64,000 bases of DNA from Minisyncoccota bacterium (GCA_035583355.1 DATEZQ010000011.1:19648-83647); one strand, 5' to 3'; shown: positions 11,848-63,618, counted from the first letter of the stretch. Numbers and translations: made by a program. Notes: generated from the letters alone by a model not told the origin.

Positions 11848-12120
11848 CCCACTTGCAACTCGTTATGGAATACACATGGAGGAGTGGCTGCTCCTTTGTG
11901 TAAAATTTAATGAAGCACGAACCGGAAAACAGTGTTGTGCATCTTCCTCGGAGTGGCATAAAACCGCCACCAACAAGGATTATGCAACATGTCTCCTCAC
12001 CGAATGCGAGTGGGGCTGTTCTGCTATCTCAGAGGAAAGCTACTGTATCTGTTGCAGTTCCTCGCACTGCAAACATCCCTGTTTCGCTGCGACCTGCTGA
12101 TTTGACGCTCCAGAGTTTTT

Positions 12121-12165
12121 CTGTTACGCGCGCGCGTACGCACGCGCACGCACACGCGCGAAAAG
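12121..12165. repeat. (CG/CA)n alternating purine-pyrimidine tract
   Basis: ctgttacgcgcgcgcgtacgcacgcgcacgcacacgcgcg. Potential Z-DNA and slipped-strand tract just upstream of the probable start of the secreted-protein gene. Confidence 0.7.
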
Positions 12166-12176
12166 ATGAAGGGGCA

Positions 12177-13877: not shown

Positions 13878-13879
13878 AC

Positions 13880-16800
13880 ATGATAAGAAATAACGCCTAC
13901 AATCTTTTCGAAAAGACATGCACAATGATGCTCATCATGGCGTTGTTTTTGGTCAGCAGTGGTGGTCCAGAAAGCATGCGGTTTTTTGTTCATCCACTGG
14001 GAGTAAAATCGGCTGAAGCGGCGCAGACGAGCTATGGCAAGGAGTTGCGTACTGCCGAGTTTGTGCTTGGTGGTGGAAGTGATAATGCGTTGCGCGCGAG
14101 TGGAGTTATAGGGTATGCGGGGGCGAGCACCTGGGCAACTACAAAGCCCGCACTGCTTACTGGTGGTGATGTGGTAAAACTTTTGGGTACGGGAATTTCT
14201 GTCATCAACGCACAGCTTGATGTGTCATATGAATTTCCATCCGCGGCTGCCGCGACAGTTTCTGAGAATAAGATTTATCTTGACGTTGAAGGTGCTGCAA
14301 CGCAGGGGAGTAACACTCCTGTCAATGAAGCGAATGGCGCATCTCCACTTGCGGTTATGGCTGGAGGAACAGGATACCTACGTACAATACATGATGTAAC
14401 CAGTTTTTTTGATCGACAGTCTGACGCTACTTGGAATAGTGGTGTGCACGTGATAGCTGCGGTTGCTCCGACGCTTACTGCTGGTAATCGTGCGCTCACG
14501 ACTGCAAAGCTGCTTGTTACGTATGAGGTTGATATCGATCCGGCGATTACACAGCTCGTGAAGACAGTGCGTATTCCGCTTGCATCGAGTGGGGTTGCAG
14601 GAAATACAGGCTCTCGCACTACGGTTTGTGCAGCAGGGGCGACATGTCCTTTCACTTTTGATACTACAGTTATTCGTGATCTTGCTGCTGATGCAGATAT
14701 TCTTGATGCGCATATTGAATTTTTTGCGCAACAAGCAAGTAATGTAAATTCAACATACAGACTTCAGTTCGCAGGCGGCACTGCATCGCCGCTCTATGCT
14801 TGGAATGAGGCAGTTGCAGATACACACAATACACGTGTGCTTTGGGGAGCATTGCCGATCGGCGGGGCGAATCTGCGTGCGCAAACTGCACACACATTGA
14901 ATCTCGTGAACACTGCGGGTGGCGCGCCGCTTTATGCAACGGGTGGTGAGGTAGTGATTACCTATGTATTCAATCCGACTGCTGCAACACAAACAGAGAC
15001 GATTCGTTACTTTGTTGATCAGGAAACAGCATCACCTGGATCGGGAGTGAATGCTGCTATTGCGGGAACGAATGTGGTCATTGCAAATGATGCTCCTGTT
15101 GTGGAAAAGGCATGGTATCGTATGCAGCTTGCCCCAGTGTTCGCTGCGGCAACAACGATGACCGTCACCCATAGTGTGGGTGGGGTAAATGGTACTGCAC
15201 AAGTGTACCAGTTTCCTGCTCCTTCAACAGCGCGAAGAGCTGCAAACACACCCGTGGTGATTCATAGCCTTACTCCCGAAACGCTTTCATTCTCCGCGTC
15301 TACTCCAGTCGGTGGGACGTTTCGCTTTAGCGCAGCGGGTGGATCTCCTGTCGCTATCGAGGTAGTGACGACATTTTCTTGGAGTTATTCAATTTCGAGT
15401 AGTCAGACGAAGACTGCATTGTTTGGTGCATCACTCCCATCGATTGGCCGAAATGTTGGAACTGTCGATAAGGTGCGTCATACGATGCTGTATCTTCCTG
15501 AACGTGCAGCAAAAACATTTGAAGATGGATTTCTTGAGGCGCACTATACACATCATGATGCGTCAGCAATTTCAATTTCAAGTGGTATTCATATAGGTTT
15601 TGGGACTTCGACGACTGCAAATGCCTTGACTGTGACAGAGCTAGGCGGAACAGGGGGAACATATTCATATAGCGCTCGGTTGTATGCGAAGTTTACTTCT
15701 TCAGCTATTGGGTCATCAGTAAATTTGACCAAGCAACGTTATCCGTTTGCGGTTGAAGAGAGCGTTGATGTTGCTGCTGACTTCACCTACTTCGCGAACA
15801 CTGTTGTACTTACTTATACGGTTGCGGCACCACTTGCATATAGTCCACATCCAAAACAGTTGCGTACTGCTGAGTTTTTACTTGGTGGGGGATCTGAACA
15901 GGCGACGCGCGCAACGGGAGTGTATTCGTATGCAGGTGCATCTTGGAATACAACAAAACCTGCAGGAGAATTGATTAAGTTGCTTGGAGATGATGCGGAG
16001 GTCGTGAGTGCGTACGTGGATTTATCTTTCTCTACTACGAACATTGTGGCAGTCACCGGACTCACTGTATTGGGGGATATTACGGGTTCTATAGATAGCG
16101 ATGCAACAAACGTTACGCTTTATACTGCACCGATGAATCAAATTGTGGGTGGAGGAAGTACGGTAACGGGTTATTACCATGCTCAGATTGATGCAACAAG
16201 AATGTTTATTGGACAGTCGAGTGCATCGCTCAATGCGGGAGTGAATTTTGGGATTGGTGTTGCTGCGACAGGTCCAACTCGTGCACTCACTTCTGCAAAA
16301 CTTGTGGTGACCTATGAGAGCACGTACTCACTCAATCCAATGGTAGGAACGAAGACCGTACGTTTCCCACTCGATTCGACAACAGGAACAGATGTCGGCT
16401 CCAAGACTACAACATGCACCACCACAGCTTGCGGATTTACCTATAACGCCGCAATTGGAGATTTGCTCAACAGTGATACTGCGAATATTCTTTCGGTGCA
16501 TGCAGAGATTTCTGCACTTGCGAACTCGGCGGGTGCGGCAGCAGCACGTGCATATACAATTACTATTGCACATTCTCCTGGTTCAAGTGCAACATATAAT
16601 CCCGTTGAGACCGCACTGGACTCAACAGGCCTTCGTCTTATGTGGGGGATGCCTATCGGGGGAAATGACTTTGTAGTGAATACTCCAAGAACGCTTAATA
16701 TCGGTGCGAACACGACAAATGTTCCCCTTGCGCATCTTGGTGGAGAGATCGTCGTGACTTATGCATATTCAAGTCGCTCGACAAATCAATCGGAGACACT

Positions 16801-19249
16801 CGTGTATCCACTTGGGCAACTTGCCGTTGCTCCAGCAGTGGGTGCAACAACAACGATAGGTACTTTTACTCCCGTACTTCCCATGCAGGATGCACAAGTG
16901 CAGCAGATGTGGCTCCGAGTGCGCTATTCACCGCATAGTTCACTTTCTGCAATTATTGAGGGAAGTGTCGGTGCGTCATTACTTGGACGCACTTATGCAG
17001 CAGGGACAATGACTAATCGTGGAGGTGGTGAAACTTATATTCTCCATGATATGACTTCATTGATAGGAGCATATGCCACTTCAGGGACTGCAATTGGTGC
17101 AAAGATAAAATTCGTGACCGCAGCAGTTCCCGCAACTGCAGAATTATTTATCACATATGTTTGGGACGGGAGTCATGGTGGTACGCAAGCGCGTAGCGTT
17201 TCATATGTAGCGCCACAGCAATATGCTCCAAGCACGGCTGTTGCGTCAACAACATATCCTTTTGCAATTGATTTTGCGCGTGATGTGGGGAAGATATTCC
17301 GAGCTGCTCAGCTTGAAACATTTATTGCTCATGGAAACAGTACCACCATTACACGTGGAGGAATTGAAACATCGCTAAACGGAGTTACTACAACACTGAC
17401 CGAAGCAGGCGCAGCAACCTCGTATCCATATAATACCGTGATGGTTGATGGATTTACTGCAACCGATTTGTGGGGTAGCGCGAGCATGCCGAGTAGTACG
17501 GTTGCACTGCAAGTTCGAAATGCGAAGACCACCACAGTGAATTATCTGAACTTTAGTAACGTGCTCACGGTTACTTACGAGGAAATGCAAGCGGTACGAA
17601 GGGCAACATTTATTCAGGCGGGTTTCCGTATATATGCGGACAATGGAGCACTTACGCCTCTTGATTCTTGGTACCCGGGGTATCCGAATCAAATCGGAGA
17701 TGATCAGGAGATGACCGTAGCTAATAGACCGGTCAGAAAGAGTGACAGTGTACGTTTGCGTATCGCACTTGCCGTGAGTACCTCGACAATGCCTATAGAT
17801 GATCGCGCATTTCAATTGCAGTCCGCATTGAAGCCGATTGGTACATCTTGTAGTGCGATTGCGCCTGCATCATGGACTGCGGTAAGTAGTACGGGAGACT
17901 GGTCGGGATACAACAATACAGGTCTTGCAGCGTCAGCGATTATACCGACTCCACTTGTTGCGGTGAGTATTGGACATGTTCCACAACTCTATTCCGAAGA
18001 TGGAATAACGGGCACAAATCCAAATGCTGCGAATGTTAGCGAGACAGGAGATGTCATTGAGTATGATTGGGCATTAAAACGCAATAATGCAGTTAAAGAT
18101 GCTGACTATTGTTTCCGTGTCACTGAAAGTGATGGTACTCCAATTTTTGGATATGACTTCTACCCAGTTATGCGTACTGCGGGGTATACACCAGAAATCG
18201 CGTCTTGGCGTTGGGTGGACAACTATGCAAATGAAGCAGGTTGGCAGTCGTTGCTCGGTGCTGGATTGAATATTGCACCATCGGGGCTTCCAAATAGAAC
18301 TATTATAAAGCTACGTGTTGCTTTGCAGGATGTTGCGAATGAATCCGGAAGTAATGAGCGTTACGCAGTGCAGTGGTCTGAAGATCCAACATTTACAACA
18401 GGGGTATTCTTTGCAGACTTAGAAGGGAATTGTGTTGCAACAAGTACGTTTTGCTATGCAATAGGAATTGGTGCTGATGATACGAGCCTCAGTGTACAGA
18501 CCATAGGTGGTACGGTGCTCGGGAGGCATAATGAAGCAACGAGTTCTTCAACATTCTCTCCTGCAGCAAATAGTCTGACTGAGATGGAATATACACTGAC
18601 TTCACAAAGGCAGCGTACTGGACAGGCATATTACTTCAGGCTTTTTGACGTGAATAGGGGAATACCGTTACTCAAGAGCGCCTCTGTATACCCATCACTT
18701 ACTGCTGAGGGTGCGACGGTCAATGGTCTTGTTAGTGGTGTAAATGCTGGTGTTACTATAGATGGCTTAGTAACAACAGGCACGACAACTGCAACAACTA
18801 CTCCATTCGGAATGTTGACGATGGATACAATTGCAATACTTGCGCACCGCATCAGTATCTCCACAAATGCGATGATGGGTTATCAGGTGAATATGCAAGC
18901 AGAGGGTGATCTTAAGAATTTGTACGGTGAGATCGTTCCGTCAATTGCGGGCGCTCCTAATGCAGCACCGGTCAGTTGGAGTGTTGGTTGTCCAGCGCTG
19001 AGCGTAGGATGTATTGGCTACCATACTTCTGATCATACATTGAGTCCTGACGGTGTACCTGATCGTTTCGCTGCGAGCGATACGTGGGCAGAATTCGCGA
19101 CTTCAACGCCTTCAGAGGTTGGCTATTCTGATCTACCAACTGTAGGGACGGAGCAGTTCGATGTTGTGTATAAAATCGAACCCCATGCAGCTACTCCTCC
19201 AGGGTCTTATCGTACAAATATTTTGTATATAATTACCCCTGTCTATTAA
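13880..19249 (+). CDS. Giant (1789 aa) secreted/surface protein with an internal ~600-aa tandem duplication
   Basis: ATG 2 nt after the upstream stop, suggesting translational coupling. N-terminal hydrophobic segment. Repeat unit KELRTAEFVLGGGSDNALRASGVIGYAGASTW...KLLVTYEVDIDP recurs as KQLRTAEFLLGGGSEQATRATGVYSYAGASWN...KLVVTYESTYSLNP. Thr/Ala/Gly/Val-rich, very few charged residues. Confidence 0.6.
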   Translation: MIRNNAYNLFEKTCTMMLIMALFLVSSGGPESMRFFVHPLGVKSAEAAQTSYGKELRTAEFVLGGGSDNALRASGVIGYAGASTWATTKPALLTGGDVVKLLGTGISVINAQLDVSYEFPSAAAATVSENKIYLDVEGAATQGSNTPVNEANGASPLAVMAGGTGYLRTIHDVTSFFDRQSDATWNSGVHVIAAVAPTLTAGNRALTTAKLLVTYEVDIDPAITQLVKTVRIPLASSGVAGNTGSRTTVCAAGATCPFTFDTTVIRDLAADADILDAHIEFFAQQASNVNSTYRLQFAGGTASPLYAWNEAVADTHNTRVLWGALPIGGANLRAQTAHTLNLVNTAGGAPLYATGGEVVITYVFNPTAATQTETIRYFVDQETASPGSGVNAAIAGTNVVIANDAPVVEKAWYRMQLAPVFAAATTMTVTHSVGGVNGTAQVYQFPAPSTARRAANTPVVIHSLTPETLSFSASTPVGGTFRFSAAGGSPVAIEVVTTFSWSYSISSSQTKTALFGASLPSIGRNVGTVDKVRHTMLYLPERAAKTFEDGFLEAHYTHHDASAISISSGIHIGFGTSTTANALTVTELGGTGGTYSYSARLYAKFTSSAIGSSVNLTKQRYPFAVEESVDVAADFTYFANTVVLTYTVAAPLAYSPHPKQLRTAEFLLGGGSEQATRATGVYSYAGASWNTTKPAGELIKLLGDDAEVVSAYVDLSFSTTNIVAVTGLTVLGDITGSIDSDATNVTLYTAPMNQIVGGGSTVTGYYHAQIDATRMFIGQSSASLNAGVNFGIGVAATGPTRALTSAKLVVTYESTYSLNPMVGTKTVRFPLDSTTGTDVGSKTTTCTTTACGFTYNAAIGDLLNSDTANILSVHAEISALANSAGAAAARAYTITIAHSPGSSATYNPVETALDSTGLRLMWGMPIGGNDFVVNTPRTLNIGANTTNVPLAHLGGEIVVTYAYSSRSTNQSETLVYPLGQLAVAPAVGATTTIGTFTPVLPMQDAQVQQMWLRVRYSPHSSLSAIIEGSVGASLLGRTYAAGTMTNRGGGETYILHDMTSLIGAYATSGTAIGAKIKFVTAAVPATAELFITYVWDGSHGGTQARSVSYVAPQQYAPSTAVASTTYPFAIDFARDVGKIFRAAQLETFIAHGNSTTITRGGIETSLNGVTTTLTEAGAATSYPYNTVMVDGFTATDLWGSASMPSSTVALQVRNAKTTTVNYLNFSNVLTVTYEEMQAVRRATFIQAGFRIYADNGALTPLDSWYPGYPNQIGDDQEMTVANRPVRKSDSVRLRIALAVSTSTMPIDDRAFQLQSALKPIGTSCSAIAPASWTAVSSTGDWSGYNNTGLAASAIIPTPLVAVSIGHVPQLYSEDGITGTNPNAANVSETGDVIEYDWALKRNNAVKDADYCFRVTESDGTPIFGYDFYPVMRTAGYTPEIASWRWVDNYANEAGWQSLLGAGLNIAPSGLPNRTIIKLRVALQDVANESGSNERYAVQWSEDPTFTTGVFFADLEGNCVATSTFCYAIGIGADDTSLSVQTIGGTVLGRHNEATSSSTFSPAANSLTEMEYTLTSQRQRTGQAYYFRLFDVNRGIPLLKSASVYPSLTAEGATVNGLVSGVNAGVTIDGLVTTGTTTATTTPFGMLTMDTIAILAHRISISTNAMMGYQVNMQAEGDLKNLYGEIVPSIAGAPNAAPVSWSVGCPALSVGCIGYHTSDHTLSPDGVPDRFAASDTWAEFATSTPSEVGYSDLPTVGTEQFDVVYKIEPHAATPPGSYRTNILYIITPVY

Positions 19250-30725: not shown

Positions 30726-31397
30726 ATGAAAACTCCTCCCAAGCAAGATAAGCCACACGTGCCTTATCATCTACGCAATTACGGAAAAGTTGGTCCATCA
30801 GGCTCAATGAAGCAGGGTGATGGTCGTGAGGGTGTCCGCGTACGATTCACTCGTGGTATTCACGGTACTGATGATATTTTGAGCATGCCCTATCCACAGA
30901 TAGCTTTTGTTGGCCGCTCAAATGTCGGAAAGTCTTCAATCATTAATGCTCTGCTTGGGGGCGTCTTTGCACGCGTTTCTGCGACACCAGGAAAGACTCA
31001 GGAGATCAACTTCTACACAGTAGATGACCGCCTCTTCGTTGTAGACCTTCCAGGCTATGGATATGCAAAACTTCCAATCCCGATTGCTGAGAAAATTCGT
31101 AAGCATATTCTTTGGTACCTAGGGAGCGATGAAGTCCGTCCAAAGGTCGTCTTGCTCATTCTCGATGCGCGTGTTGGGGTGACTGATGCGGACCGCGAGC
31201 TTATCAAGGTCGTTGAGGCAGAAAAGCATCCATTGCTTGTCGTGCTCAATAAGTGGGACAAACTCAATCAGTCTGAGGCGGTGCACGCAATGCGTAATTT
31301 TAAAGCTGAATTTCCACATCTCGAGGTGATGCCTGTTTCTGCGGAAAAGAAGTATAATGTTCCCGCACTTTTCGAGCGTCTCGAGCTCAAGAAATAG
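30726..31397 (+). CDS. engB: Ribosome biogenesis GTPase EngB/YihA
   Basis: G1 FVGRSNVGKSSIINAL, G3 DLPGYGYAK, G4 NKWDK. The N-terminus is longer than typical; an alternative start at 30807 (MKQGDG...) is possible. Confidence 0.8.
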   Translation: MKTPPKQDKPHVPYHLRNYGKVGPSGSMKQGDGREGVRVRFTRGIHGTDDILSMPYPQIAFVGRSNVGKSSIINALLGGVFARVSATPGKTQEINFYTVDDRLFVVDLPGYGYAKLPIPIAEKIRKHILWYLGSDEVRPKVVLLILDARVGVTDADRELIKVVEAEKHPLLVVLNKWDKLNQSEAVHAMRNFKAEFPHLEVMPVSAEKKYNVPALFERLELKK

Positions 31398-31406
31398 TAC
31401 TAACCA

Positions 31407-31434
31407 AAACACCACTTGCGATGTGGTGTTTTTG
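31407..31434 (+). terminator. Rho-independent terminator after engB
   Basis: aaacaccac-ttgcgat-gtggtgttttt. Confidence 0.65.
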
Positions 31435-31531
31435 TGTGTTCACATGCAAAATACCACTACTATAAACATGACGTACAGGAAAGTGGAGAGTATGCTGTAT
31501 ATAGAGCAGTTCATTGTATAGGGAGGCCAAT

Positions 31532-34321
31532 ATGGCCACGCAAAAAAGCAAATCCCCGAAGAGCCCCTGGAACTCGCAGAAGCTGCATACGTTCATTCAG
31601 AAGGTCATCGATAGTGGTGGCCTCAATGTGACGGATGAAATTCCGACGAATCTCTTGCATGCCGCGATTGCGGAACGCGAGGATCTTGTTCGGCTTTTCA
31701 CGAAGCAGTTTCCGTTTACGAAAACAGCGATTCAGGAACACCTCGGCAATCTTGTCTGGACGAAACAGCGGACGAAGTTGATCGAGGCGTATTACAAGAA
31801 TGGTGAAACTGACGAAAAGATCGCCAAGCACTTCAGCTATCTTCCGCTTTCCATCCTCCGCGCGCGTATGCGCTGGATTCGAGGGAAGGGGATGCCAAAG
31901 ACTCCGCCCCCGCGCGTGCACGGCTTGTTCCGTGTCATTCCCGATGGGCAGGTCGTCGAGGAGGTGAAGGTCGAAGCTTCGACGCTCGAAGAGCCGATCA
32001 TCCTTTCTGACAAGGTCGAGGGCATCGTTCCTCTCCAGTCATTGATGTTCGGTTTGCCCTATGATCCGTGCATGACGCATCTTGTCCCTCGCTGTGCGAT
32101 GGAAGTTGCGGAGCGCACGAATCATGCGGTCGTCATCGCAGGAGGACTCCTGCATCTTGATGTTCGCCAGGCGAGTGCCGCAACAGCGAATCGTATCGCG
32201 CGCATGAGTGCGCTCGATATCGATCCTGCGGTCTTCCCGACCGCGTACAAGAAGCGCGTCGAGCTCATTATGAAAGACGAGCCTGACACGCCGATCTTCA
32301 CGACGTTCGCGGAAGACCTCGAGAATCTGCTTTCGGGCATTCGCAAGGTATTCCAGGATACGAGCAAGAAGGGTGCGGTTCCGCGCTTTACGGTGCCACT
32401 CTTCCTGATGCTCACTTCGGGTGAACGCGATCTCATCGATCGCTGTGCGCATTACGAAATTCGTTACAATGTGCTTCGCGAAGCGAAGCGCTTGAATGAC
32501 GAACGTGCGCGCCTCAGTGCGCTCATGCGTGCTGACCCTGAGAACGAATCCTTTAAGGAGTCGCTCGAGGCCATCGACGACGAGATCAAGCGGACGCTGC
32601 AGACTTACGTGTCGAAAGACAACCGACGTCGTGCGTATGATCGCCTCTATAACTACATCGTGCAGGAATTGCTTTCGGCGATTCCAGGTTCGCGCTTTGT
32701 GGGGATGAATCAGGTCACGTTTTTCCACAAAGGGAAGACCTGGCGCATCAGCGAGGCTGGTCGTGACAAGAAGAGCGCGAAGTTGCTCGATCACGAAATG
32801 CGTAATCATCTGAACGGGCTCACCCTTACGGGCGGGCTTGCCGACGTGGAGATCATCGTCAATCGGTGGTCGCTGTATGGGGCGATGTCGCTCCTCAATG
32901 ACACGAAGGCTGAACAGAAGCGTTTCGTGCAAGTGGTGGTGCCTCCTCCGACTTGTGATGTCGCGCACGTGCGCGCACATATGTTGAGGGAAGGGCTATT
33001 CGAAAATCGTACTCAGGCGGAGCGCTTCTTCAATGAGTCGCTCTTGGAGCCGGGTATGTTCACGCTCAGTTCTCGTGAGGGTCTCGTGCGCGTCGGCTGC
33101 TACAAGATTGCTGCGTTGCAGTATCAGGGCGGCATGCTTGCGTCGAGGCGCAAAGAGATTGAGGCGCGTAGGGAGCAGTACTTCACGTTCATGCTGACGA
33201 GCGATTTGCACGTCGGACATGCGTGGGAATGGCATGCGCGTTCACCGAAGAAGGGTTTGCTTGATATGACGAGTGCGATCTTTACTCTCCTTAGGGAGCA
33301 TAACGGGATCGGTCGTATTCACTCGTATCTCATTCCTGACGATCTGGTGCATGGCGCGAATCATCCGTACCATCTGCAGCCACACGAGCAACGCTTGAGT
33401 GTGCATGCACTGGAAGCGATGCGCGCGAAGGAATTGGAAGAGGTGAAGACCACGCAGAGCACCAAAGAGCTTCGCAAGAAGCTCAAGGAGCGGTGGGACT
33501 TCTCGATTGACCAAGTGGTGAAGGGTGCGAGCTATCGTCCGGAAGAACAGTTCAGAAAGTTCATCTACATGACGCTCGTTCCCAATGCCGACATGCTTGG
33601 GAATATCGTGGCCACCTACTGCCAGTCGTCGGCGCGTTTCGTGCCGGCGAGTGAAGTCCTCAAGGTGCCAAAAGATTCTCGCGATCTTACCGTCATTGCC
33701 TTTGGCAACGGTAATCACTGGATGAATTCTGGTATCCGTGGTGAGAGCTTCATTTCGGAAAGTTTCATCGCCGCCGAAGTCCTCAAACCGCATCTGATGC
33801 AGTATGTCCCTCGGGACTACCATCATAAGTTGCTTGAGGAGTATTCTCCGCTCGTTGGAGCACCGCTCCATGGGCAGGATGCGCTCGGTTTGGCCCGGCT
33901 TAATCTGGGTCATAATGTCGAATATGGCGTCGCCTTGCGGGGGAGCCCTGCACGCTATGGTGCTGCGAATGGTTTCGGCCTTGCCGAGACTGCGCACAAT
34001 GCCATCGAGCGTGGCAATTACAATGGTATCTTCCGCGGAGTGCAAATGACCGTCGAATTTTACGGTGATAAGCACAAGGCTGCCGCTATCTTCGCTCCGG
34101 GTTATCTCGGTGTGATGTCCGGCACTGCTGCGACTGAGGATCCCTTCAGTATTCATGGGTTCTCTCGTGTACACAATGCAGGCGTCTTCGCTTCGCTCTG
34201 CGCCGCAGGAAATGAATTTGGTCCCACCTTCGTCACGTATTGCCCCGCGCCGTGGCTGAAGGACTGCATCGAAAAAGAACGCGTGGTGGATTTCCGGAAT
34301 ATCCTTCCGAATCCTATGTAA
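31532..34321 (+). CDS. Large orphan protein (929 aa) in a compositionally distinct segment, likely horizontally acquired
   Basis: ATG at 31532 with a canonical GGGAGG Shine-Dalgarno 6 nt upstream. GC noticeably higher than its neighbours, with heavy use of CCG/GCG/ACG/TCG/CGC codons. The reverse strand is also open over long stretches, a high-GC artefact. Possible weak metallophosphoesterase-like motifs in the C-terminal half (SDLHVGH..., DDLVHGANH, GNGNHW). No confident family. Confidence 0.6.
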   Translation: MATQKSKSPKSPWNSQKLHTFIQKVIDSGGLNVTDEIPTNLLHAAIAEREDLVRLFTKQFPFTKTAIQEHLGNLVWTKQRTKLIEAYYKNGETDEKIAKHFSYLPLSILRARMRWIRGKGMPKTPPPRVHGLFRVIPDGQVVEEVKVEASTLEEPIILSDKVEGIVPLQSLMFGLPYDPCMTHLVPRCAMEVAERTNHAVVIAGGLLHLDVRQASAATANRIARMSALDIDPAVFPTAYKKRVELIMKDEPDTPIFTTFAEDLENLLSGIRKVFQDTSKKGAVPRFTVPLFLMLTSGERDLIDRCAHYEIRYNVLREAKRLNDERARLSALMRADPENESFKESLEAIDDEIKRTLQTYVSKDNRRRAYDRLYNYIVQELLSAIPGSRFVGMNQVTFFHKGKTWRISEAGRDKKSAKLLDHEMRNHLNGLTLTGGLADVEIIVNRWSLYGAMSLLNDTKAEQKRFVQVVVPPPTCDVAHVRAHMLREGLFENRTQAERFFNESLLEPGMFTLSSREGLVRVGCYKIAALQYQGGMLASRRKEIEARREQYFTFMLTSDLHVGHAWEWHARSPKKGLLDMTSAIFTLLREHNGIGRIHSYLIPDDLVHGANHPYHLQPHEQRLSVHALEAMRAKELEEVKTTQSTKELRKKLKERWDFSIDQVVKGASYRPEEQFRKFIYMTLVPNADMLGNIVATYCQSSARFVPASEVLKVPKDSRDLTVIAFGNGNHWMNSGIRGESFISESFIAAEVLKPHLMQYVPRDYHHKLLEEYSPLVGAPLHGQDALGLARLNLGHNVEYGVALRGSPARYGAANGFGLAETAHNAIERGNYNGIFRGVQMTVEFYGDKHKAAAIFAPGYLGVMSGTAATEDPFSIHGFSRVHNAGVFASLCAAGNEFGPTFVTYCPAPWLKDCIEKERVVDFRNILPNPM

Positions 34322-34323
34322 AC

Positions 34324-34352
34324 AATGCCCCCCCAAGTGGGGGCATTTTTTT
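34324..34352 (+). terminator. Rho-independent terminator
   Basis: aatgccccc-ccaagt-gggggcatttttttt. Confidence 0.7.
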
Positions 34353-34385: not shown

Positions 34386-34910
34386 ATGGCAACTATAGCA
34401 CTCATCATTGCAGAGGAAGGTTTTCAGACAAAGGAATATAATGATACGAAGCATATGCTCGAAAGCGCAGGGCATAAGGTTATCACTGTATCCGTGCATG
34501 GGGGAGTGGCAATCTCAAATATCAACGAGCACATTGCGGTCGATATGAGTCTTTCAGAGCTTCAGCTCGAAAGCATTGATGGTGTGTATTTGATTGGGGG
34601 TCCAGGTGCATTACGTGCTCTCGATAATCCTGAGATGTATAAATTCCTTGCATCGGTACGCGACCTTCCTGGGATGGCATATGGTTCTATCTGTGTATCG
34701 ACGAGAGTGCTCGCAAAAGCACATGTACTTGAAGGTCAGAAGGCCACAGGATGGAATGGTGACCGACAACTCGGAGATATTCTTTCTGCAGGAGGTGCCA
34801 CCTACATCCCACAACCAGTTGTCGAAGATGGCCGTGTTATCACCGCCGATGGTCCTATCTCTGCCGCAGGCTTCGGCACCGCTATAGCGAAGCGTTTCAA
34901 GACTTCATAA
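34386..34910 (+). CDS. DJ-1/PfpI family protein
   Basis: 174 aa. Nucleophile-elbow Cys in AYGSICVS. Type 1 glutamine amidotransferase-like fold pattern (IDGVYLIGGPGA...). Confidence 0.8.
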   Translation: MATIALIIAEEGFQTKEYNDTKHMLESAGHKVITVSVHGGVAISNINEHIAVDMSLSELQLESIDGVYLIGGPGALRALDNPEMYKFLASVRDLPGMAYGSICVSTRVLAKAHVLEGQKATGWNGDRQLGDILSAGGATYIPQPVVEDGRVITADGPISAAGFGTAIAKRFKTS

Positions 34911-35020: not shown

Positions 35021-35108
35021 TCTCTCGTTTGAGATATGATGCTTTATGCTAATTTATTGTTTCAACAAAATTTAGGTAATAAAAATTCCCCTAGCGGGGA
35101 AATTTTTA

Positions 35109-35399
35109 TTACCACTGCTGACGTGGGCGGAACTCGCGCTGTGGGCGATCCTCCTTTGGGCGAGCGATGTTCACCGTAAGACGGCGACCACCGAACTCCT
35201 TGTCATGAAACATGTCGATAGCTGCATTTGCCATCTCCTCAGTGTCCATCTCTACGAAACCGAATCCGCGTGAGCGGCGAGTTTCGCGATCTGTCACTAT
35301 AGAAGCTGACGTTACAGTACCAGCAGCAGCGAACGCGTCCTTGAGCTCCGTATCTGTTGTAGAATATGGGAGACCACCGACGTAAAGCTTTATTGCCAT
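35109..35399 (-). CDS. RNA-binding protein with RRM domain
   Basis: RNP2 KLYVGGL, RNP1 RGFGFVEM, 96 aa. Confidence 0.8.
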   Translation of the reverse strand: MAIKLYVGGLPYSTTDTELKDAFAAAGTVTSASIVTDRETRRSRGFGFVEMDTEEMANAAIDMFHDKEFGGRRLTVNIARPKEDRPQREFRPRQQW

Positions 35400-35557: not shown

Positions 35558-35584
35558 AAACAAGACCTTGCGGTCTTGTTTTTT
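35558..35584. terminator. Bidirectional rho-independent terminator
   Basis: aacaagacc-ttgc-ggtcttgtttttt with an A-run upstream. Terminates the minus-strand helicase gene. Confidence 0.65.
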
Positions 35585-37115
35585 AACGCCACTGCTTCCT
35601 CTCGGGGACGAAGGTGAGCGCATGTCCACTCTTGCTTGCACGACCAGTACGACCGATGCGGTGCACATAAGTGTCATAGTCATTTGGAAGGTCGTAGTTT
35701 ACGACCATGGTGATATCGGCGATATCGATACCGCGAGCCGCAACATCAGTTGCAATGACCGCCTGCACTGTACCTGAGGCGAGTGCCTGCACAGCACGCT
35801 CACGCTCACGATTACGCATGTCTCCATGGAGTGCGAGTACACGGAATCCACGCTTATTGAGTGTCTCTGCAAGGCCATCAACGTGACGCTTCATTTCGCG
35901 GAAGATAAGTACCTTATTCGCATTGTCTCCATTCAAGATATCCGAGAGCTTCTCGATTTTGTCCGCTTCGTCACGTACGCGCACGATGTTCTGTTCCACT
36001 GCGCTTGCAGTGTCACGAGACTTGATTGCGATCGTTGTAGGATCCTTGAGGAACTTACGGCAAAGTGCACGAATCTCATCAGAGAATGTCGCTGAGAAGA
36101 AAAGACTCTGGCGATCCTCCGGCATTTCGCCGAGGATGAAGCGCATATCATCAATGAAACCCATGTCGAGCATACGGTCTGCCTCATCGAGGACGACCGA
36201 CGTATAACCCTTCATGTTGATCTTTCCCTGGAGCATAAGGTCTTTGACACGACCTGGCGTACCGATGACCGCATGTACTCCTTGGCGAAGTTCACGGATC
36301 TGACGATAGATAGGAGCGCCGCCGACACACGTCACTGAGAAAAGATTCATTCCCTTTGTGAAGTCTTGGAAAGCATCCTCGATCTGCGTCGCGAGTTCGC
36401 GTGTAGGAGAGAGGACAAGGATTTTCTGATTAGGATTTGCAACGAGCTTGTTGATGAGGGGGATGAGGAATGCTGCGGTCTTTCCTGTTCCTGTTGCAGC
36501 AATACCGATGATGTCTTTGCCGGTAAGAACTACAGGGATAGCCTGGTCTTGAATTGCAGATGGCTTTACAAAACCCTTTGCCGCTAGATTTGCGGCAAGC
36601 TTCTCGTGAATTCCAAAGTCATTGAAGACATGCTTTGCATCATATGATTCCTGTTCGCTCTTCGTTGCCTTGTTGATGAAGCGTGCCTCATCGATGATAT
36701 TCTTATTGAAGCCACGTCCGCGACCACCACCATTTCGCGATCCGCCGGAGCGAGAACCAAATGATGGACGCCCGAATGAGCGTGCGGGTGCACGGCTTGG
36801 TGCAGCTGATGCACCACGGTAACCACCACGAGTACTGTGCTCTGCGTGTGGCGTACGACCTGATGCTGGTGCTGCGGAGTGACCACGGTAACCACCGCGA
36901 GACTCATCACGTCCAAAAGAGCGCTCGCGCGTTGCGGGTGCTGCTGCATGACCACGATAGCCCCCTGTTTTTGGTGCTGTGCTGCGTGCGCGGCTGCGAG
37001 GAGATTCCTCTTGTGCGCGTTCGCTACGATTGCGATTACGTGAAGACTTTGGTGCCGAAGGATGCAGTGGGCGACCACTGCGCGGAGACTTTGCTCCGAA
37101 TTTTTTGATACGCAT
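35583..37115 (-). CDS. DEAD-box ATP-dependent RNA helicase with N-terminal Arg/Gly-rich (RGG-like) extension
   Basis: Q-motif ...FVKPSAIQDQAIP. Motif I AATGTGKTAAF. DEAD in VLDEADRMLDMGF. SAT in FSATFS. HRIGRTGR motif VI. N-terminal 150 aa is a low-complexity GGYRGH/RG repeat region. Confidence 0.85.
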   Translation of the reverse strand: MRIKKFGAKSPRSGRPLHPSAPKSSRNRNRSERAQEESPRSRARSTAPKTGGYRGHAAAPATRERSFGRDESRGGYRGHSAAPASGRTPHAEHSTRGGYRGASAAPSRAPARSFGRPSFGSRSGGSRNGGGRGRGFNKNIIDEARFINKATKSEQESYDAKHVFNDFGIHEKLAANLAAKGFVKPSAIQDQAIPVVLTGKDIIGIAATGTGKTAAFLIPLINKLVANPNQKILVLSPTRELATQIEDAFQDFTKGMNLFSVTCVGGAPIYRQIRELRQGVHAVIGTPGRVKDLMLQGKINMKGYTSVVLDEADRMLDMGFIDDMRFILGEMPEDRQSLFFSATFSDEIRALCRKFLKDPTTIAIKSRDTASAVEQNIVRVRDEADKIEKLSDILNGDNANKVLIFREMKRHVDGLAETLNKRGFRVLALHGDMRNRERERAVQALASGTVQAVIATDVAARGIDIADITMVVNYDLPNDYDTYVHRIGRTGRASKSGHALTFVPERKQWR

Positions 37116-40031: not shown

Positions 40032-41504
40032 GTGAACGCACACGTCACACACCACAAGCTCTTTTTTGTTGTGGGTGCTTTGGCACTCTTTTTTGGAATG
40101 CGTGCATTCGCTCAAGACGCAAATCCTCCACAGATTTCGAATATTCAAATTGGGGGTCTGACTGCAACAAGTGCGGTCATTACGTGGGATACAGACAAGC
40201 CTGCAGATTCACAGATTAATTATTGTCTTACAAAAGATTACGGTATTGCGCGAGATCCTGGTGCAGACAAAACGAAGCATACAGTTACACTGATGGAGCT
40301 TGATCCATCAACACTCTACCACTTACGCGTGGGTTCTCAGGACTCTAGCGGCAACCAAGCACTTTCCGGTGACTACACACTTATTACTAAGGGTGCGCTT
40401 ACACTCAAGACCGAGCAACGGCTTTCACCTCAGGAAACTGCACATGTTGAGAAGGTGGTGCAGGAGATTCAGCAGATACAGACAACAGAGGCCTTAGAGA
40501 TTGTTCAGAAAGAATTAACGAAGGTTACAAAGCAGGTGGCGAAGCCCCCGTATATTATGGGTCCTCCACGTATCGCGGAGATTGGTATGGATTATGCCAT
40601 TGTTGCATGGGAGACGGACGATCCCGCATCTTCGATCATTGAGTATTCAAGAGAGAGTGAATATGACGTCGCTCGTCCTGATGCGTATAGTGCGCAGACT
40701 GAAGAGGGTGGTATGACGAAAGAGCACTCGGTGCGTATCGTTGGACTTGTCTCAGGTACAAACTATCACCTCCGTGCAGGATCGAAGAATTCTCTTAACC
40801 TTGTTGGATATTCGCGCGACGTTTCGTTTATGACGAAGTCACCGATTCCGACAGTGCAGAGCTTCCGTGTGATTAAGGCAGAAGCAGATAGTGCAACACT
40901 TGGTTGGAAGACGACTGTGCCTGCAGCGGGAATCGTTGAGTATACTGATATCAAAACGAAACAAGTACGCTCCGCTGGTTCGCCGGTGTTCGCATCGACG
41001 CAGGCAGTGAAGATCGCTGGTCTCAAGCTTGGCGCGCGCTATATGGCAGTCGTCAAAGCAGAAAATGCAGCAGGGGAGAAGGTGACGAGTGATCCGCTCT
41101 ACTTCTCTACCGTGAAAGATACGACTCCACCAATCATCAGTAAGGTGACGAATGAATCGACGTTGTATCCTACCGCAGAGGCAAAGGTGCAGACTATCGT
41201 CTCATGGGCGACTGATGAACCGGCATATTGTACCTATCACTATCGTGCAGGTCTCAATCCAAGCGTAGAAGCAACGAACTTCGAGGAAGAGAAGGAGCCT
41301 CGAACGAATCATGTTGAGGTTATTATCGAGTTCATGCCTTCAACGGTCTACCAGTTTTGGATGACCTGTCGCGATCCTTCGAGAAATGCGTCTGAATCTG
41401 AGAAATTCGTTTTGTTCACTCCAAATAAGGAGAAGAGCATTATTGATATTATTCTCGAGAACTTCCAAGGTGCGTTCGGTTGGGTCAAGAATATCGGTAA
41501 GTAA
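40032..41504 (+). CDS. Secreted protein with four fibronectin-III / purple-acid-phosphatase-N-like repeats
   Basis: Signal peptide. Four ~95-aa repeats, each with P-P-x-I..., a W..D motif (ITWDTD, VAWETDD, LGWKTT, VSWATDE) and Y-H-L/Y-x-V strands. Confidence 0.6.
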   Translation: MNAHVTHHKLFFVVGALALFFGMRAFAQDANPPQISNIQIGGLTATSAVITWDTDKPADSQINYCLTKDYGIARDPGADKTKHTVTLMELDPSTLYHLRVGSQDSSGNQALSGDYTLITKGALTLKTEQRLSPQETAHVEKVVQEIQQIQTTEALEIVQKELTKVTKQVAKPPYIMGPPRIAEIGMDYAIVAWETDDPASSIIEYSRESEYDVARPDAYSAQTEEGGMTKEHSVRIVGLVSGTNYHLRAGSKNSLNLVGYSRDVSFMTKSPIPTVQSFRVIKAEADSATLGWKTTVPAAGIVEYTDIKTKQVRSAGSPVFASTQAVKIAGLKLGARYMAVVKAENAAGEKVTSDPLYFSTVKDTTPPIISKVTNESTLYPTAEAKVQTIVSWATDEPAYCTYHYRAGLNPSVEATNFEEEKEPRTNHVEVIIEFMPSTVYQFWMTCRDPSRNASESEKFVLFTPNKEKSIIDIILENFQGAFGWVKNIGK

Positions 41505-41510
41505 TAAAAA

Positions 41511-41540
41511 GAAAACCGCTCCGGCGGTTTCTTTTTATTA
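41511..41540 (+). terminator. Rho-independent terminator
   Basis: gaaaaccgc-tccg-gcggtttctttttatt. Confidence 0.65.
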
Positions 41541-41576
41541 CTTACCGATTTCTTGCCCACTACTAGCGGCCGCGGC

Positions 41577-41676
41577 CTTTTTGCTCGGACCAGTCTCACG
41601 CTTCGCTCTCGTCGTACCACATGTACGTCGTCGAGCTCCAGCGAGGCTGTTGCGAGCAAAAATTCGCGCGGTTTCA
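41577..41676. repeat. Structured intergenic hairpin element, copy 4 (subfamily 2)
   Basis: ttttgctcgg...cgagcaaaa outer stem. Tip cgtac-cacat-gtacg. Conserved ctccagcgagg. 3' tail aaaattcgcgcggtttcat shared with copy 5. Preceded by the ggccgcggcc palindrome. Confidence 0.55.
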
Positions 41677-41790
41677 TGGTGTTGGTTATATGTAAATGCA
41701 TAATGCACAATTACAAAGTCAATTCACTTGCACGATATTTTGGGAGGAGTAATCTTATGTATAGAGAACCACTTTCCTAAGGAGGGAATC

Positions 41791-42222
41791 ATGTTCAGTC
41801 GAATGTTCTTCCGCACGCTTTTCGTCACGCTCCTTGTACTCGTGCTGCTCCCTTTGGTGGGATGCAGGGAGCCCGTGTACTATGCGGACACTGGTCCGCC
41901 ACCTGTCGTGTACACCGAGTATAATTATTTCGGTGTGCCGTATTACTACTGGTACTGGGGTGGCGTGCGCTATCATAGCTACCGTCATCCACATCGTCAT
42001 CATCACAGACATTACCCGATACTGCCACCGCCACATGTGCGTAGGCCTGCTCCGCATCGTTCCGTCGTGACCGATCCTCCAACAAGGGGAAGAGAGCTGC
42101 GTCGGCCAGAACGTCAGCAGTCTGCACCTCCTCCTCGTCTGCAGCAACAGCGGCCAGCATCTCCGCCGGCGGGAAGACCACAGGGGCGCGATGTGCAGCG
42201 TCCACGCGAGAGACCGCGCTAG
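41791..42222 (+). CDS. His/Tyr/Pro/Arg-rich putative lipoprotein
   Basis: AAGGAGGG Shine-Dalgarno 6 nt upstream of the ATG at 41791. Lipobox LLPLVGC. Low-complexity YYYWYWGGVRYHSYRHPHRHHHRHYPILPPPH followed by a Pro/Arg/Gln-rich tail. Confidence 0.5.
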   Translation: MFSRMFFRTLFVTLLVLVLLPLVGCREPVYYADTGPPPVVYTEYNYFGVPYYYWYWGGVRYHSYRHPHRHHHRHYPILPPPHVRRPAPHRSVVTDPPTRGRELRRPERQQSAPPPRLQQQRPASPPAGRPQGRDVQRPRERPR

Positions 42223-42230
42223 CTTTCTAA

Positions 42231-42284
42231 GGCACGCTACGCGTGCCTTTTTGTTGCAACAATAAAACCGCTTTCGCGGTTTTA
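42231..42284. terminator. Pair of terminator hairpins between convergent genes
   Basis: ggcacgc-tacgc-gtgccttttt and aaaaccgc-tttc-gcggtttt. Confidence 0.5.
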
Positions 42285-43265
42285 TTTCTTTGAAGATGCA
42301 TCGGGGGTGAACGTGATCGAGAACGAAGTTTGTTCGTCTGTTGTTGTTGCAACAAGTTCTACTCCAAGAAGATCAGCAAGTGCGCGTGCGACATGTGGTC
42401 CGAGTGATGAGCTCGTCATTTCTCCGGTTGTCGGATTCTTGCTTACTCGCTCAAAAATGTCTTTGCGCATGTGCTCAGGCACTGGTGGTGCATTGTCAGC
42501 AATAATAATACGTGCCATTACTGCTTCTCCAGTGTTAAGAGTGAATGCGCGTAGGCTGATTGCATCTGAGGCACCACGTGTACGCTCGAGTGAGTAGGTG
42601 TAGAGTGACTGCAAGATATCAGCGAGGATGATGTGATCAGTGCTGATAATGATTGGCTCAGGGGGTGGGACGTACACAACTTGTGTTCCATGCGCCTTAG
42701 TGCGGCGTGCGGTGATTGTGAGTAGATTGTTGATGACCGCATTGATATCAGTTTGTGCGCGAGAGATGACAATCTCTTTGCGTTCAATACGCGCAAGGAG
42801 GGTCAGGTTGCGCACGACATCAAGGACATGGTCATTGCGATCTCGTATACGCATCAACGTTTGTTGCTCGAGCTTGCCAAGCAAGTCAAGAGAGGGTTCA
42901 AGTGTGCGAATGCCCCATTTGATCGCTGTGCTTGCCTCGGCGATATCTCTTGATGCGATATGGGTGTACTCGTTGCGTAATTCCTCCATTTCGTGCTGAT
43001 GCTCACGGCCCTCCTCGATGCGTTCAATGTTTCGCTGTAGACGATTGATAATAAGGAAGAAAAGGAGGAGTAATGTTGCAGCAAGGCTTATCTCTACAAC
43101 GAGAGCAAGATACGCATCATGCATGCGGTCAGTGAATCGGTGGACAATAAGGATGATCGCGACAGTGAGCGCGCCCAAAAATACACTCGCAAATGATGGA
43201 CAGCGATAGAAGGGAATATTCAAGCGTTTACAGGACGAAAAAGCAGAAAGCTTAGAGGACTTCAT
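42282..43265 (-). CDS. Membrane sensor histidine kinase
   Basis: Two N-terminal TM segments. H-box region (LARIERKEI...). HATPase_c motifs (ARIIIADNAPPVPEHMRKDIFERV; GLGPHVARALADLLGVELVA). Confidence 0.7.
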   Translation of the reverse strand: MKSSKLSAFSSCKRLNIPFYRCPSFASVFLGALTVAIILIVHRFTDRMHDAYLALVVEISLAATLLLLFFLIINRLQRNIERIEEGREHQHEMEELRNEYTHIASRDIAEASTAIKWGIRTLEPSLDLLGKLEQQTLMRIRDRNDHVLDVVRNLTLLARIERKEIVISRAQTDINAVINNLLTITARRTKAHGTQVVYVPPPEPIIISTDHIILADILQSLYTYSLERTRGASDAISLRAFTLNTGEAVMARIIIADNAPPVPEHMRKDIFERVSKNPTTGEMTSSSLGPHVARALADLLGVELVATTTDEQTSFSITFTPDASSKK

Positions 43266-59334: not shown

Positions 59335-59895
59335 TTAGCCAAGCGTCTCCATGATGAATCGTATGAGGAGGCGGGTAGAACGGTCATATTTATGATTTGC
59401 GTTGTTGATGATGCAGTCATACTGCGGATGCATCGCAGCGAGCGTCTCGTTGCGCACATCTTGCATGCGTTCGGTGAGCTCCGCGAGTGTGCGGCAGCGT
59501 TTGTGCAGGCGCTCTCTGATCTCGGGTTCGGGCGCGAGGATGAATGCGAAATGTGCCTCAGGCACGAGTGCGACGATCTTGTCCGCACCCTCAGGGTCGC
59601 GAATGATGATCGCTGGTCCTGCCTCGAGCGTACCAAAGAGATTTTCTTTGAACGTTCCGTGGTAGTGCCCATGAGCAAGTGAGTATTCTGCAATGAGACC
59701 CTTCTGTCTACTGTCCATAAAGTCCTGCTCATTGATGTACGTGTATGCCCGGTCAGGTGATTCCCCATGTCTGGGCTTTCTGGTCGTATGTGTCGTGATT
59801 TGGGTGAGCTCGGGAAAGATCTGGAGGATGCGTCCTACCAGCTCGATCTTTCCACAAGCAGCAGGTCCAGAAATCACAAACAGAGGATAGCGCAT
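59335..59895 (-). CDS. Guanylate kinase-like paralog with degenerate P-loop
   Basis: Aligns along its length with the adjacent gmk (TTRKPRHGE, AEYSLAHGHYHGT, IIRDPEGADKI, FAFILAPEPEIRERL, YDCIINNAN). Its Walker A reads GPAACGKIE, with Ile replacing the Ser/Thr after Lys. Confidence 0.6.
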   Translation of the reverse strand: MRYPLFVISGPAACGKIELVGRILQIFPELTQITTHTTRKPRHGESPDRAYTYINEQDFMDSRQKGLIAEYSLAHGHYHGTFKENLFGTLEAGPAIIIRDPEGADKIVALVPEAHFAFILAPEPEIRERLHKRCRTLAELTERMQDVRNETLAAMHPQYDCIINNANHKYDRSTRLLIRFIMETLG

Positions 59896-63018: not shown

Positions 63019-63042
63019 AAAAAGCCCGCATGCGGGCTTTTG
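63019..63042. terminator. Rho-independent terminator
   Basis: aaaagcccgca-tgcgggctttt. Confidence 0.65.
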
Positions 63043-63044
63043 TC

Positions 63045-63569: not shown

Positions 63570-63618
63570 AATGCATAAAATTCATTAAGATGTCAATTGG
63601 TACCTACGCTGGGTAAAT

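Follow-up and report, generated by a model that had tools for sequence, protein, structure and literature searches.

The 64,000-nt stretch of DNA analysed here (Minisyncoccota bacterium, GCA_035583355.1, DATEZQ010000011.1:19648-83647), hereafter called the window and the source of all coordinates unless a homologous locus is named, carries a single 929-aa gene, hereafter X (31532..34321, + strand, stop codon included), between the genes of an EngB-type GTPase and a DJ-1/PfpI protein. A preliminary description made from the sequence alone had regarded X as a compositionally foreign, horizontally acquired cassette with the profile of a standalone defence or mobile-element protein. Neither the origin nor the function proposed there could be upheld: X has very probably been inherited vertically rather than by recent horizontal gene transfer, and its deviant codon usage is a gene-specific regime, replacing NNA by NNG codons in the four-fold degenerate boxes, that has been kept in one sub-clade. 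We propose, with moderate confidence, that X is a soluble three-part enzyme of an unnamed, vertically inherited family, namely a DNA-tethered phosphodiesterase or nuclease. That is, a helix-turn-helix (HTH) module is followed by a novel 390-aa domain and by a divergent metallophosphoesterase (MPE) domain with a helical insertion, an architecture that matches no Pfam, NCBIfam, PHROGs or PADLOC model. What is new is a ~930-aa family of the Candidate Phyla Radiation (CPR), comprising about 125 clusters, with a confident fold model and a candidate active site (D558, H560, D604, N728, H729 and H848).

Protein family and domain architecture

A search of 1.84 billion cluster representatives (clusters at 50% identity) with a profile of five sequences recovered 125 clusters with E<1e-3, of which 77 had E<1e-30, and most of the stronger matches were full length (920-1270 aa). 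So far, the family has been seen in Patescibacteria/CPR and in unclassified bacterial metagenome-assembled genomes (MAGs). Its members, where labelled at all, are called "hypothetical protein", and X gave no match in Pfam, NCBIfam or PADLOC (E<=1) or in PHROGs, so that the earlier view of an orphan protein stands, as no named relatives were found. Patescibacteria/CPR genomes are small and rich in conserved proteins without assigned function. An alignment of 59 members, with about 20% identity to X, contains ten invariant residues (G118, G174, D558, H560, D604, Q673, H729, G845, H848 and G893), and G727 and N728 are at least 90% conserved. The AlphaFold2 model computed from this alignment had a predicted local distance difference test score (pLDDT) of 92.2 and a predicted template modelling score of 0.90, whereas an alignment of five sequences had given a pLDDT of 42.

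The C-terminal domain (aa 549-929; 33176..34318, + strand), which is interrupted by a helical insertion at aa 624-698, very probably has the MPE fold, as judged from Foldseek comparisons of the predicted structure and from its motifs. The nine best matches in the PDB were all to DP1, the small subunit of Pyrococcus abyssi PolD (E 1.2e-5 to 2e-3, probability 0.99-1.00), and ranks 10-40 consisted of metallophosphoesterases only (Rv0805, SapH, GpdQ, Mre11, Vps29 and purple acid phosphatase). In BFVD, the matches were phage calcineurin-like phosphoesterases, several of which are annotated "DNA polymerase II small subunit". The signatures that had been noticed from the sequence (SDLHVGH at aa 557-563, DDLVHGANH at 603-611 and GNGNHW at 725-730) proved sound, since they contain family-invariant residues and lie in a domain modelled with this fold. 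They correspond to motif I (D558-x-H560, within SD558-L-H560-VG; 33203-33211, + strand), motif II (D603-D604, within PD603-D604-LVHG; 33338-33343, + strand) and motif III (G727-N728-H729, within G-N728-H729-W; 33710-33718, + strand), to which motif IV can be added (G845-D846-x-H848, in X G845-D-K-H848; 34064-34075, + strand). D558, H560, D604, H729 and H848, which are all invariant, and the nearly invariant N728 fit the metal-binding motifs of MPEs. With regard to the hallmarks of the superfamily, the predicted structure shows the four-layer alpha/beta/beta/alpha fold, and motifs I-IV (DxH, the GD bridging Asp, GNH(D/E) and H) are all represented. At the position of motif V (GHxH), the family consensus is GFxPNNTG; H875 and H881 are present there in close orthologues, and D870 is near-invariant in the family and might substitute for the motif V His. 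Over the whole protein, conservation peaks at the metal ligands and at the His of motif III, so that X is likely to be catalytically active; that its substrate is nucleic acid is an evenly balanced proposition.

The same residues bear on the possibility that the MPE domain has lost its activity and serves as a scaffold, as in the eukaryotic polymerase B-subunits and Vps29, in which case X would be a purely structural or regulatory DNA-binding factor. The DP1/B-subunit and Vps29 folds do occur among the structural matches, the motif V histidines are not conserved and sequence-level MPE signal is undetectable, yet the sole invariant polar residues of the family are the metal ligands of motifs I-IV, the motif III His and Q673, whereas dead MPEs characteristically lose both these ligands and this His. 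A dead scaffold is therefore unlikely. We find it just as doubtful that X is a protein Ser/Thr (PPP-like) phosphatase or a small-molecule or cyclic-nucleotide phosphoesterase that does not act on nucleic acid and whose N-terminal helices mediate protein contacts. The DxH, DD..HG and GNH motifs are common to PPP phosphatases and to cyclic-nucleotide phosphodiesterases, of which Rv0805 and GpdQ are fold matches too, and the IMP dehydrogenase (IMPDH), phosphoribosyltransferase (PRTase) and OMP-decarboxylase genes found next to X in two lineages hint at nucleotide metabolism. However, the DP1 exonucleases matched with E-values three to four orders of magnitude better than those of the small-molecule enzymes, the match to a PPP phosphatase in BFVD was weak (probability 0.35), and several types of HTH module recur at the N-termini of the family.

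The preliminary description had noted a helical, HTH-like stretch of ~110 aa at the N-terminus, and this agrees with both the AlphaFold2 model and the HTH matches of other members. In the predicted secondary structure, aa 1-118 (31532..31885, + strand) form an all-helical, basic domain with 21 Lys and Arg against 11 Asp and Glu residues. Its last three helices (aa 78-89, 94-100 and 106-117), accompanied by the near-invariant W76 and P105 and the invariant G118, look like a predicted tri-helical HTH of the Myb/GcrA type. In other members, the N-terminal region is extended by further W-T-x-x-E-type repeats or, in some cases, replaced by recognised HTH domains, and Pfam matches there include HTH_11 (9e-12), HTH_5 (2e-9) and weak GcrA, IF2_N and Myb_DNA-bind_6. 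Because HTH domains occupy the N-termini of these relatives, it is reasonable to suppose that the N-terminal module of X binds DNA. Between the two terminal domains lies an alpha/beta domain (aa ~160-548; 32009..33175, + strand; pLDDT mostly >90) with a long three-helix insertion at aa 296-383. This domain contains the invariant G174 and no evident catalytic constellation; its role may be structural or in substrate binding. An internal duplication, in which the N-terminal half would be a degenerate copy of the MPE half, was also considered and rejected (hhalign probability 0.4%, not significant).

In the mechanism that we propose, the HTH module would anchor the protein on DNA, the middle domain would shape or gate the substrate, and a binuclear-metal site in the MPE domain would cleave a phosphodiester or phosphomonoester in a nucleic-acid or nucleotide substrate, the likeliest activity being, by fold, that of a nucleic-acid exonuclease or phosphodiesterase of the DP1/Mre11 type. 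Such an enzyme could serve as a housekeeping nuclease of repair, processing or nucleotide salvage. This kind of role is likelier than defence because X is soluble, monocistronic and without a conserved partner, and lies in housekeeping and stress-gene neighbourhoods.

A number of results weigh against this interpretation. Pfam searches of 43 members, with cut-offs of E<=0.01 and E<=10, yielded sporadic N-terminal HTH matches alone and no MPE model, and ten of the most distant members gave no domain matches except HTHs in one. No curated sequence model of the superfamily (Pfam Metallophos or Metallophos_2, NCBIfam) recognises the domain. In the PDB, neither the sequence of X on its own nor the profile of 59 sequences found anything meaningful, and the profile found no MPE, the best matches being TFIIS (E 0.38) and the RPA32 winged helix (E 1.3). 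A sequence-level link to E. coli SbcD was likewise rejected (hhalign probability 0.4%, with motif I alone aligning). As there is no such link, the MPE assignment rests on the predicted structure and the motif pattern; template modelling (TM) scores for single MPEs, when normalised to the target, are a modest 0.3-0.5, and motif V is not conserved. X itself has no HTH match in Pfam. None of the top 40 PDB fold matches, all of them metallophosphoesterases in an output without query ranges, could be assigned to the ~390-aa middle domain, which the proposal leaves unexplained. Finally, no conserved partner gene that would point to a pathway was found in nine genomic contexts.

Codon usage of X

Within the window, X has a G+C content (GC) of 0.549, compared with 0.487 +/- 0.034 in the 56 other open reading frames (ORFs; z=1.8), and its GC at third codon positions (GC3) is 0.653 compared with 0.473 +/- 0.077 (z=2.3). 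NCG codons account for 11.9% of its codons, the range in most genes being 2-9%. Among dinucleotides, CpG is over- and TpA under-represented; trinucleotides containing CG are 1.4-1.9 times more frequent, and TAG, TAA and ATA 2.5-5 times rarer. The traits had been described as absent from the flanking genes. GC, GC3, NCG codons and the balance of A and G at third positions do deviate in X, but high GC3 recurs in a few small genes of the window, namely two guanylate-kinase-like genes (0.60 and 0.72) and tsf (0.61). The height of GC3 is thus not in itself peculiar to X, and the anomaly is narrower than a raised GC, consisting of a shift from A to G at the third position of four-fold degenerate codons (A3-to-G3 shift). 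Of the four-fold sites of X, 6.1% (28/461) carry A, a share that is 29% in 47 other genes pooled (binomial p=4e-35), and 38% carry G, compared with 19%; X is the lowest and the highest, respectively, of all genes compared, whereas C and T shift far less. Expressed as the share of its amino acid, GCA falls to 0.10 from 0.51 in the bulk of the genes, ACA to 0.04 from 0.29, TCA to 0.04 from 0.25, GTA to 0.03 from 0.20 and ATA to 0 from 0.14, while ACG rises to 0.56 from 0.27. The four-fold NNA codons are down 3-7 fold, and over all NNA codons the depletion is about five-fold and not confined to TTA, CTA and TCA; AAA is depleted only mildly and GAA not at all (0.49 in X, 0.45 in bulk). High expression or translational optimisation was discarded as the cause of the elevated GC3, as the reverse pattern is seen in rpsB and tsf (four-fold G 0.09 and 0.14, four-fold A 0.30 and 0.35, respectively).

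The deviation is shared by relatives. In six independent loci, both GC and GC3 of X are above those of its neighbours (GC3 z-scores 0.8 to 3.8), and X is the highest or near-highest gene for GC3 in each locus where A3 is depleted. The four-fold A content is 0.06 in X of the window (0.25 in the adjacent engB), 0.09 in locus L001 (engB 0.32), 0.17 in L012 (engB 0.25), 0.12 in L013 (engB 0.22) and 0.06 in the Lloydbacteria homologue of L014. Altogether, the depletion of A3 has been kept in 5/8 lineages examined, despite synonymous divergence (dS) >1. Among the orthologues at 73-75% protein identity, the four-fold sites of hisS, engB and the DJ-1 gene are statistically saturated, with dS in the flanks >2 or incomputable, whereas those of X are more similar than expected under composition-matched saturation (z -2.9 to -8.2). 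The synonymous sites of X are therefore constrained, and the constraint is spread along the gene. A localised embedded element was considered as the source of this conservation and rejected, because the conservation is spread out and peaks only slightly at codons ~640-700. Since the bias has outlasted the saturation of synonymous sites in the neighbours, we take it to reflect selection or a persistent local bias rather than foreign origin.

Two observations limit this interpretation. First, A3 depletion is missing from X in L003, L015 and L017, which makes it a trait of a sub-clade and not of the whole family. Second, the bias could have any of several causes, candidates being codon-biased translation of stress transcripts, resistance to a HigB-type RNase, messenger RNA (mRNA) stability and biased gene conversion. 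The ordinary A3 of the three lineages outside the sub-clade, together with a dinucleotide and codon signature unlike the rest of the genome, would also fit an ancient acquisition of X, by the sub-clade ancestor, from a GC-rich donor whose signature has not yet been ameliorated. We consider such a transfer quite improbable: between the lineages with the trait, dS in X exceeds 1 and the four-fold sites of hisS, engB and the DJ-1 gene are saturated, the trait spans homologues down to 30-38% protein identity, far past plausible amelioration times, the four-fold sites of X are better conserved than saturation allows, and the shift is specific to codon families (GAA being kept), which points to selection and not to an inherited base composition. 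Under the gene-specific regime favoured here, the avoidance of A-ending codons by a single gene offers a measurable example of synonymous sites that, in an uncultured lineage, have long been under selection or a lasting local bias, and explaining it could reveal how expression is controlled in these organisms.

Several other genes of the window stand out in composition. The two guanylate-kinase-like genes (59335-59895 and 59983-60489, both - strand; Pfam Guanylate_kin 6e-15 and 6e-25; GC3 0.60 and 0.72, respectively) are adjacent, and the second of them has a four-fold A content of 0.08 but is C-rich (0.54) and not G-rich, a pattern unlike that of X. A 182-aa ORF (63030-63578, + strand) is the third low-A gene (four-fold A 0.12) and might share the codon class of X. 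The highest GC in the window (0.588) is that of a 143-aa ORF (41791-42222, + strand) without a Pfam match, within a local rise of GC to 0.52 at 41500-43000. Finally, two large consecutive genes (11910-13877 and 13880-19249, + strand; 655 and 1789 aa) combine a high GC at the second codon position (0.50-0.52) with a GC3 of 0.37-0.40 and probably encode surface proteins rich in Ala, Thr, Ser and Pro.

Genomic position, expression signals and antisense reading frames

X was described as a single discrete ORF, and this was confirmed by the ORF listing and by the family matches of its flanks. The longest reading extends from 31514 to 34321 (+ strand), and the ATG at 31532 gives the 929-aa protein; start sites of the orthologues agree with this choice, the first residues being MATQK or MSTKK, and the homologues are full length. 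The protein is soluble, without transmembrane segments (top 19-residue Kyte-Doolittle window 1.14). Upstream, the EngB-type GTPase gene (MMR_HSR1; 30726-31397) ends in an intrinsic-terminator-like stem-loop of 10 pairs with a T-run (31406..31432, + strand), which was found by a terminator scan, is conserved as a stem in 4/4 close orthologue loci and separates engB transcription from X. It is followed by a putative promoter (31468..31496, + strand), in which a -35 element (ATGACG, 31468-31473) and a -10 element (TATGCT, 31491-31496) are 17 nt apart. CATG(A/G)C and GTATGCT blocks are invariant in the four orthologous intergenic regions while neighbouring synonymous sites are saturated; against a promoter, a simple consensus scanner made no call for this element. 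The GGGAGG Shine-Dalgarno motif (31521..31526, + strand; read from the sequence, 5 nt before the ATG) and an intrinsic-terminator-like element of X's own (34324..34347, + strand; stem-loop of 9 pairs, 6 of them G-C, with a T-run) are present as earlier noted. X is thus a self-contained monocistronic unit with its own signals and terminators on both sides, followed by the DJ-1/PfpI gene (34386-34910, + strand).

Among 5.8 billion proteins searched, only five close relatives of X were found. In GCA_027330905.1 (73% identity), the order DsbA-like gene, hisS, engB, X, DJ-1, RRM is the same as in the window, and the arrangement engB-X-DJ-1 occurs in three genomes at 73-75% identity, including loci L009 and L010. 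X directly follows engB, with a DsbA-like gene upstream, also in L012 (38% identity) and L013 (34%), one of these MAGs being labelled Patescibacteria group. At the ~20%-identity tier, the gene of the 1158-aa member P0027 in L021 comes directly after sufB-nifU-sufC-FeS_assembly_P, and the window has the same cluster (sufBCD and FeS_assembly_P) 3-7 kb upstream of X. Neighbours of other members include IMPDH, PRTase, OMP decarboxylase, YceG, ClpB, L10/L12, superoxide dismutase (SOD), fmt/def, sigma-70 and cold-shock domain (CSD) genes. All nine independent contexts are housekeeping, and no integrases, transposases or defence genes could be detected in any of them. A repeat search found only short, chance-level repeats flanking X, and an Rfam scan of the whole window identified a tRNA-Thr alone, with no tRNA near X. 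No relatives of X were found by tblastn among phages (50,697 records) and plasmids (72,556 records) or by a pattern scan of IMG/VR, and PADLOC (PADLOC-DB v2; E<=1) and PHROG gave no matches. Divergence among the orthologues (Nei-Gojobori method, NG86) amounts to 0.11-0.21 at nonsynonymous sites (dN) and 1.1-2.0 at synonymous sites (dS), with a ratio (omega) of about 0.1-0.15, so that the protein is under purifying selection, although it evolves faster than its neighbours (73-75% identity to the orthologues compared with 78-91% for engB and DJ-1).

These results leave very little room for the view that X is a recently acquired cassette for a nuclease of defence or of a mobile element that acts on its own. 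It is true that X combines deviant GC and GC3 with enriched CpG and depleted TpA, that it is monocistronic with its own signals, that it carries a nuclease-like MPE domain and that it evolves faster than engB and DJ-1. However, all relatives that were found, including those with as little as 34% identity, have the gene in the same position, the gene is under purifying selection, its surroundings in nine lineages lack integrases, transposases, tRNAs and flanking repeats, and neither the defence and phage models nor the phage, plasmid and viral collections searched yielded a match. In the preliminary description, orthologues of native codon usage at this position had been named as one finding that would refute its reading. 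The orthologues are indeed at the same position, but native codon usage is not what they have, since they share the deviation, which speaks for a maintained gene-specific trait rather than for a recent import. For the calling of genomic islands from composition this is a caution, as a gene with deviant GC3, CpG and antisense ORFs is here among the most stably placed of its region.

In several loci, stress or proteostasis genes (ClpP, ClpB-like AAA+ or DJ-1/PfpI) lie within a few kb of the X homologue: at 13688-14416 (- strand) in L012, 6097-6747 (- strand) in L013, 10939-13513 (+ strand) in L015, 9053-11122 (+ strand) in L017 and 34386-34910 (+ strand) in the window; L003 has CSD, MsrA/B and AhpC genes. 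This neighbourhood may be due to chance in small genomes, or could hint at a stress regulon.

The long reverse-strand ORFs over X that had been reported are real (31511-31921, 32039-32980 and 33242-34336, all - strand; 136, 313 and 364 aa). All three are in the codon-aligned antisense frame, in which stops arise from sense TTA, CTA and TCA codons. X contains 3 such codons, where bulk usage would predict ~22 and the overall loss of NNA codons ~4, and in the orthologues the antisense stops number 1 to 12 per gene and fall at non-homologous codons. Because the 3 codons fit the general depletion and their positions vary among orthologues, the antisense ORFs, including the 313-aa and 364-aa ones, are a by-product of NNA avoidance and not genes. 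A functional overlapping antisense gene as the reason for the synonymous pattern is thus extremely improbable, even though such ORFs are also long in the Lloydbacteria homologue (640 and 301 aa) and synonymous divergence in X is reduced, given that stop positions and numbers differ between orthologues, that the depletion affects all NNA codons, that synonymous conservation is diffuse and that the antisense translations are rich in Arg, His and Leu, as is typical of mirror-frame artefacts. An antisense-stop-creating NNA codon does recur at codons 488-499 in four orthologues (codon ~489 of X, about 32996-32998, and L001, L009 and L012) and is a conserved exception to NNA avoidance.

Downstream of the DJ-1/PfpI gene, the gene of an RRM-domain protein (35109-35399, - strand) adjoins that of a DEAD-box helicase (35583-37115, - strand) with an Arg/Gly/Ser-rich N-terminal extension of ~130 aa, which contains three GGYRG(H/A)(A/S)AAP repeats and an RGG-like tail; an extension of this kind is unusual in bacterial DEAD-box proteins. 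Just downstream of the RRM-protein gene, a near-perfect, AT-rich 17-nt inverted repeat (35075-35113; GGTAATAAAAATTCCCC / GGGAAATTTTTATTACC; 94% complementary, 5-nt loop) is probably the terminator of this gene or a protein-binding site.

Comparison with known systems

At its N-terminus, X resembles GcrA and Myb-SANT domains in that aa 74-118 (VWTK...IAK...LP...R.RW.RG) combine a W-T-x-x pattern with three helices. One family member matches Pfam GcrA (E 0.009) and two match Myb_DNA-bind_6 weakly, but these matches are below the Pfam thresholds and in other members rather than in X. The likeness to GcrA we take to be a lead only.

The codon usage can be compared with that of codon-biased stress transcripts, for which a model of tRNA reprogramming has been put forward, e.g. 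for the ACG-rich DosR regulon of mycobacteria (PMC5114619). Common to both are a gene-specific, conserved preference, in X for G-ending codons and opposite to that of the translation-machinery genes, and a neighbourhood that in X often includes DJ-1, ClpP, ClpB, CSD, Msr/AhpC or SOD. The likeness is conceptual only, as X is known from the sequence of uncultured bacteria. By analogy, the near-absence of A-ending codons in X could be a functional synonymous code, serving either stress translation via reprogramming of tRNA wobble positions or immunity of the mRNA to a HigB-like RNase, HigB-like toxins being ribosome-dependent RNases that cleave adenosine-rich codons (PMC4931118). Such a code would imply that the X enzyme is needed at times when the bulk of translation has stopped.

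Mre11/SbcD nucleases are among the fold matches of the C-terminal half (5DNY and 4TUG), and motif I of X (TSDLHVG) resembles that of SbcD (TSDWHLG). Unlike them, X has another domain architecture and no neighbouring gene of a Rad50/SbcC-type ATPase in the nine contexts. The phage calcineurin-like phosphoesterases of BFVD gave comparable fold matches (E 1e-6 to 1e-4, probability 1.00), but these are single-domain proteins of 250-480 aa, and no phage or viral sequence relative of X was found.

The small subunit DP1 of archaeal PolD, an Mre11-like 3'-5' proofreading exonuclease, comes closest in structure to the C-terminal half (PDB 5IHE, 6HMF, 8PPT and 9F29) and has a binuclear MPE fold with the DxH, D, GNH and H motifs in common with it. 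The title of 6HMF refers to a proof-reading-deficient H451 variant of DP1, from which the motif III His of DP1 can be taken as catalytic, and H729 of X is taken as the putative equivalent of H451 by motif position rather than by alignment. In contrast to DP1, X is bacterial, has a different N-terminal half (the HTH and the 390-aa domain), is only 10-11% identical without a sequence-level signal, reaches a TM-score of 0.33 and does not conserve motif V. No DP2 partner gene is adjacent to X in the nine contexts, in which neighbourhoods and not whole genomes were covered, and a literature search on DP1, metallophosphoesterases and Patescibacteria returned nothing relevant. As partner subunits and a link in sequence are missing and the architecture differs, X is not demonstrably a member of the DP1/B-subunit, Mre11/SbcD or PPP groups. 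Nevertheless, the modelled C-terminal half could be a true bacterial homologue, with oligonucleotide-binding (OB) fold plus phosphodiesterase (PDE) domain, of the archaeal/eukaryotic DP1/B-subunit, although this homology, like the functional synonymous code, seems improbable. If the homology is true, X would represent a bacterial branch of the DP1 lineage and a new DNA-end-processing or proofreading exonuclease for CPR bacteria.

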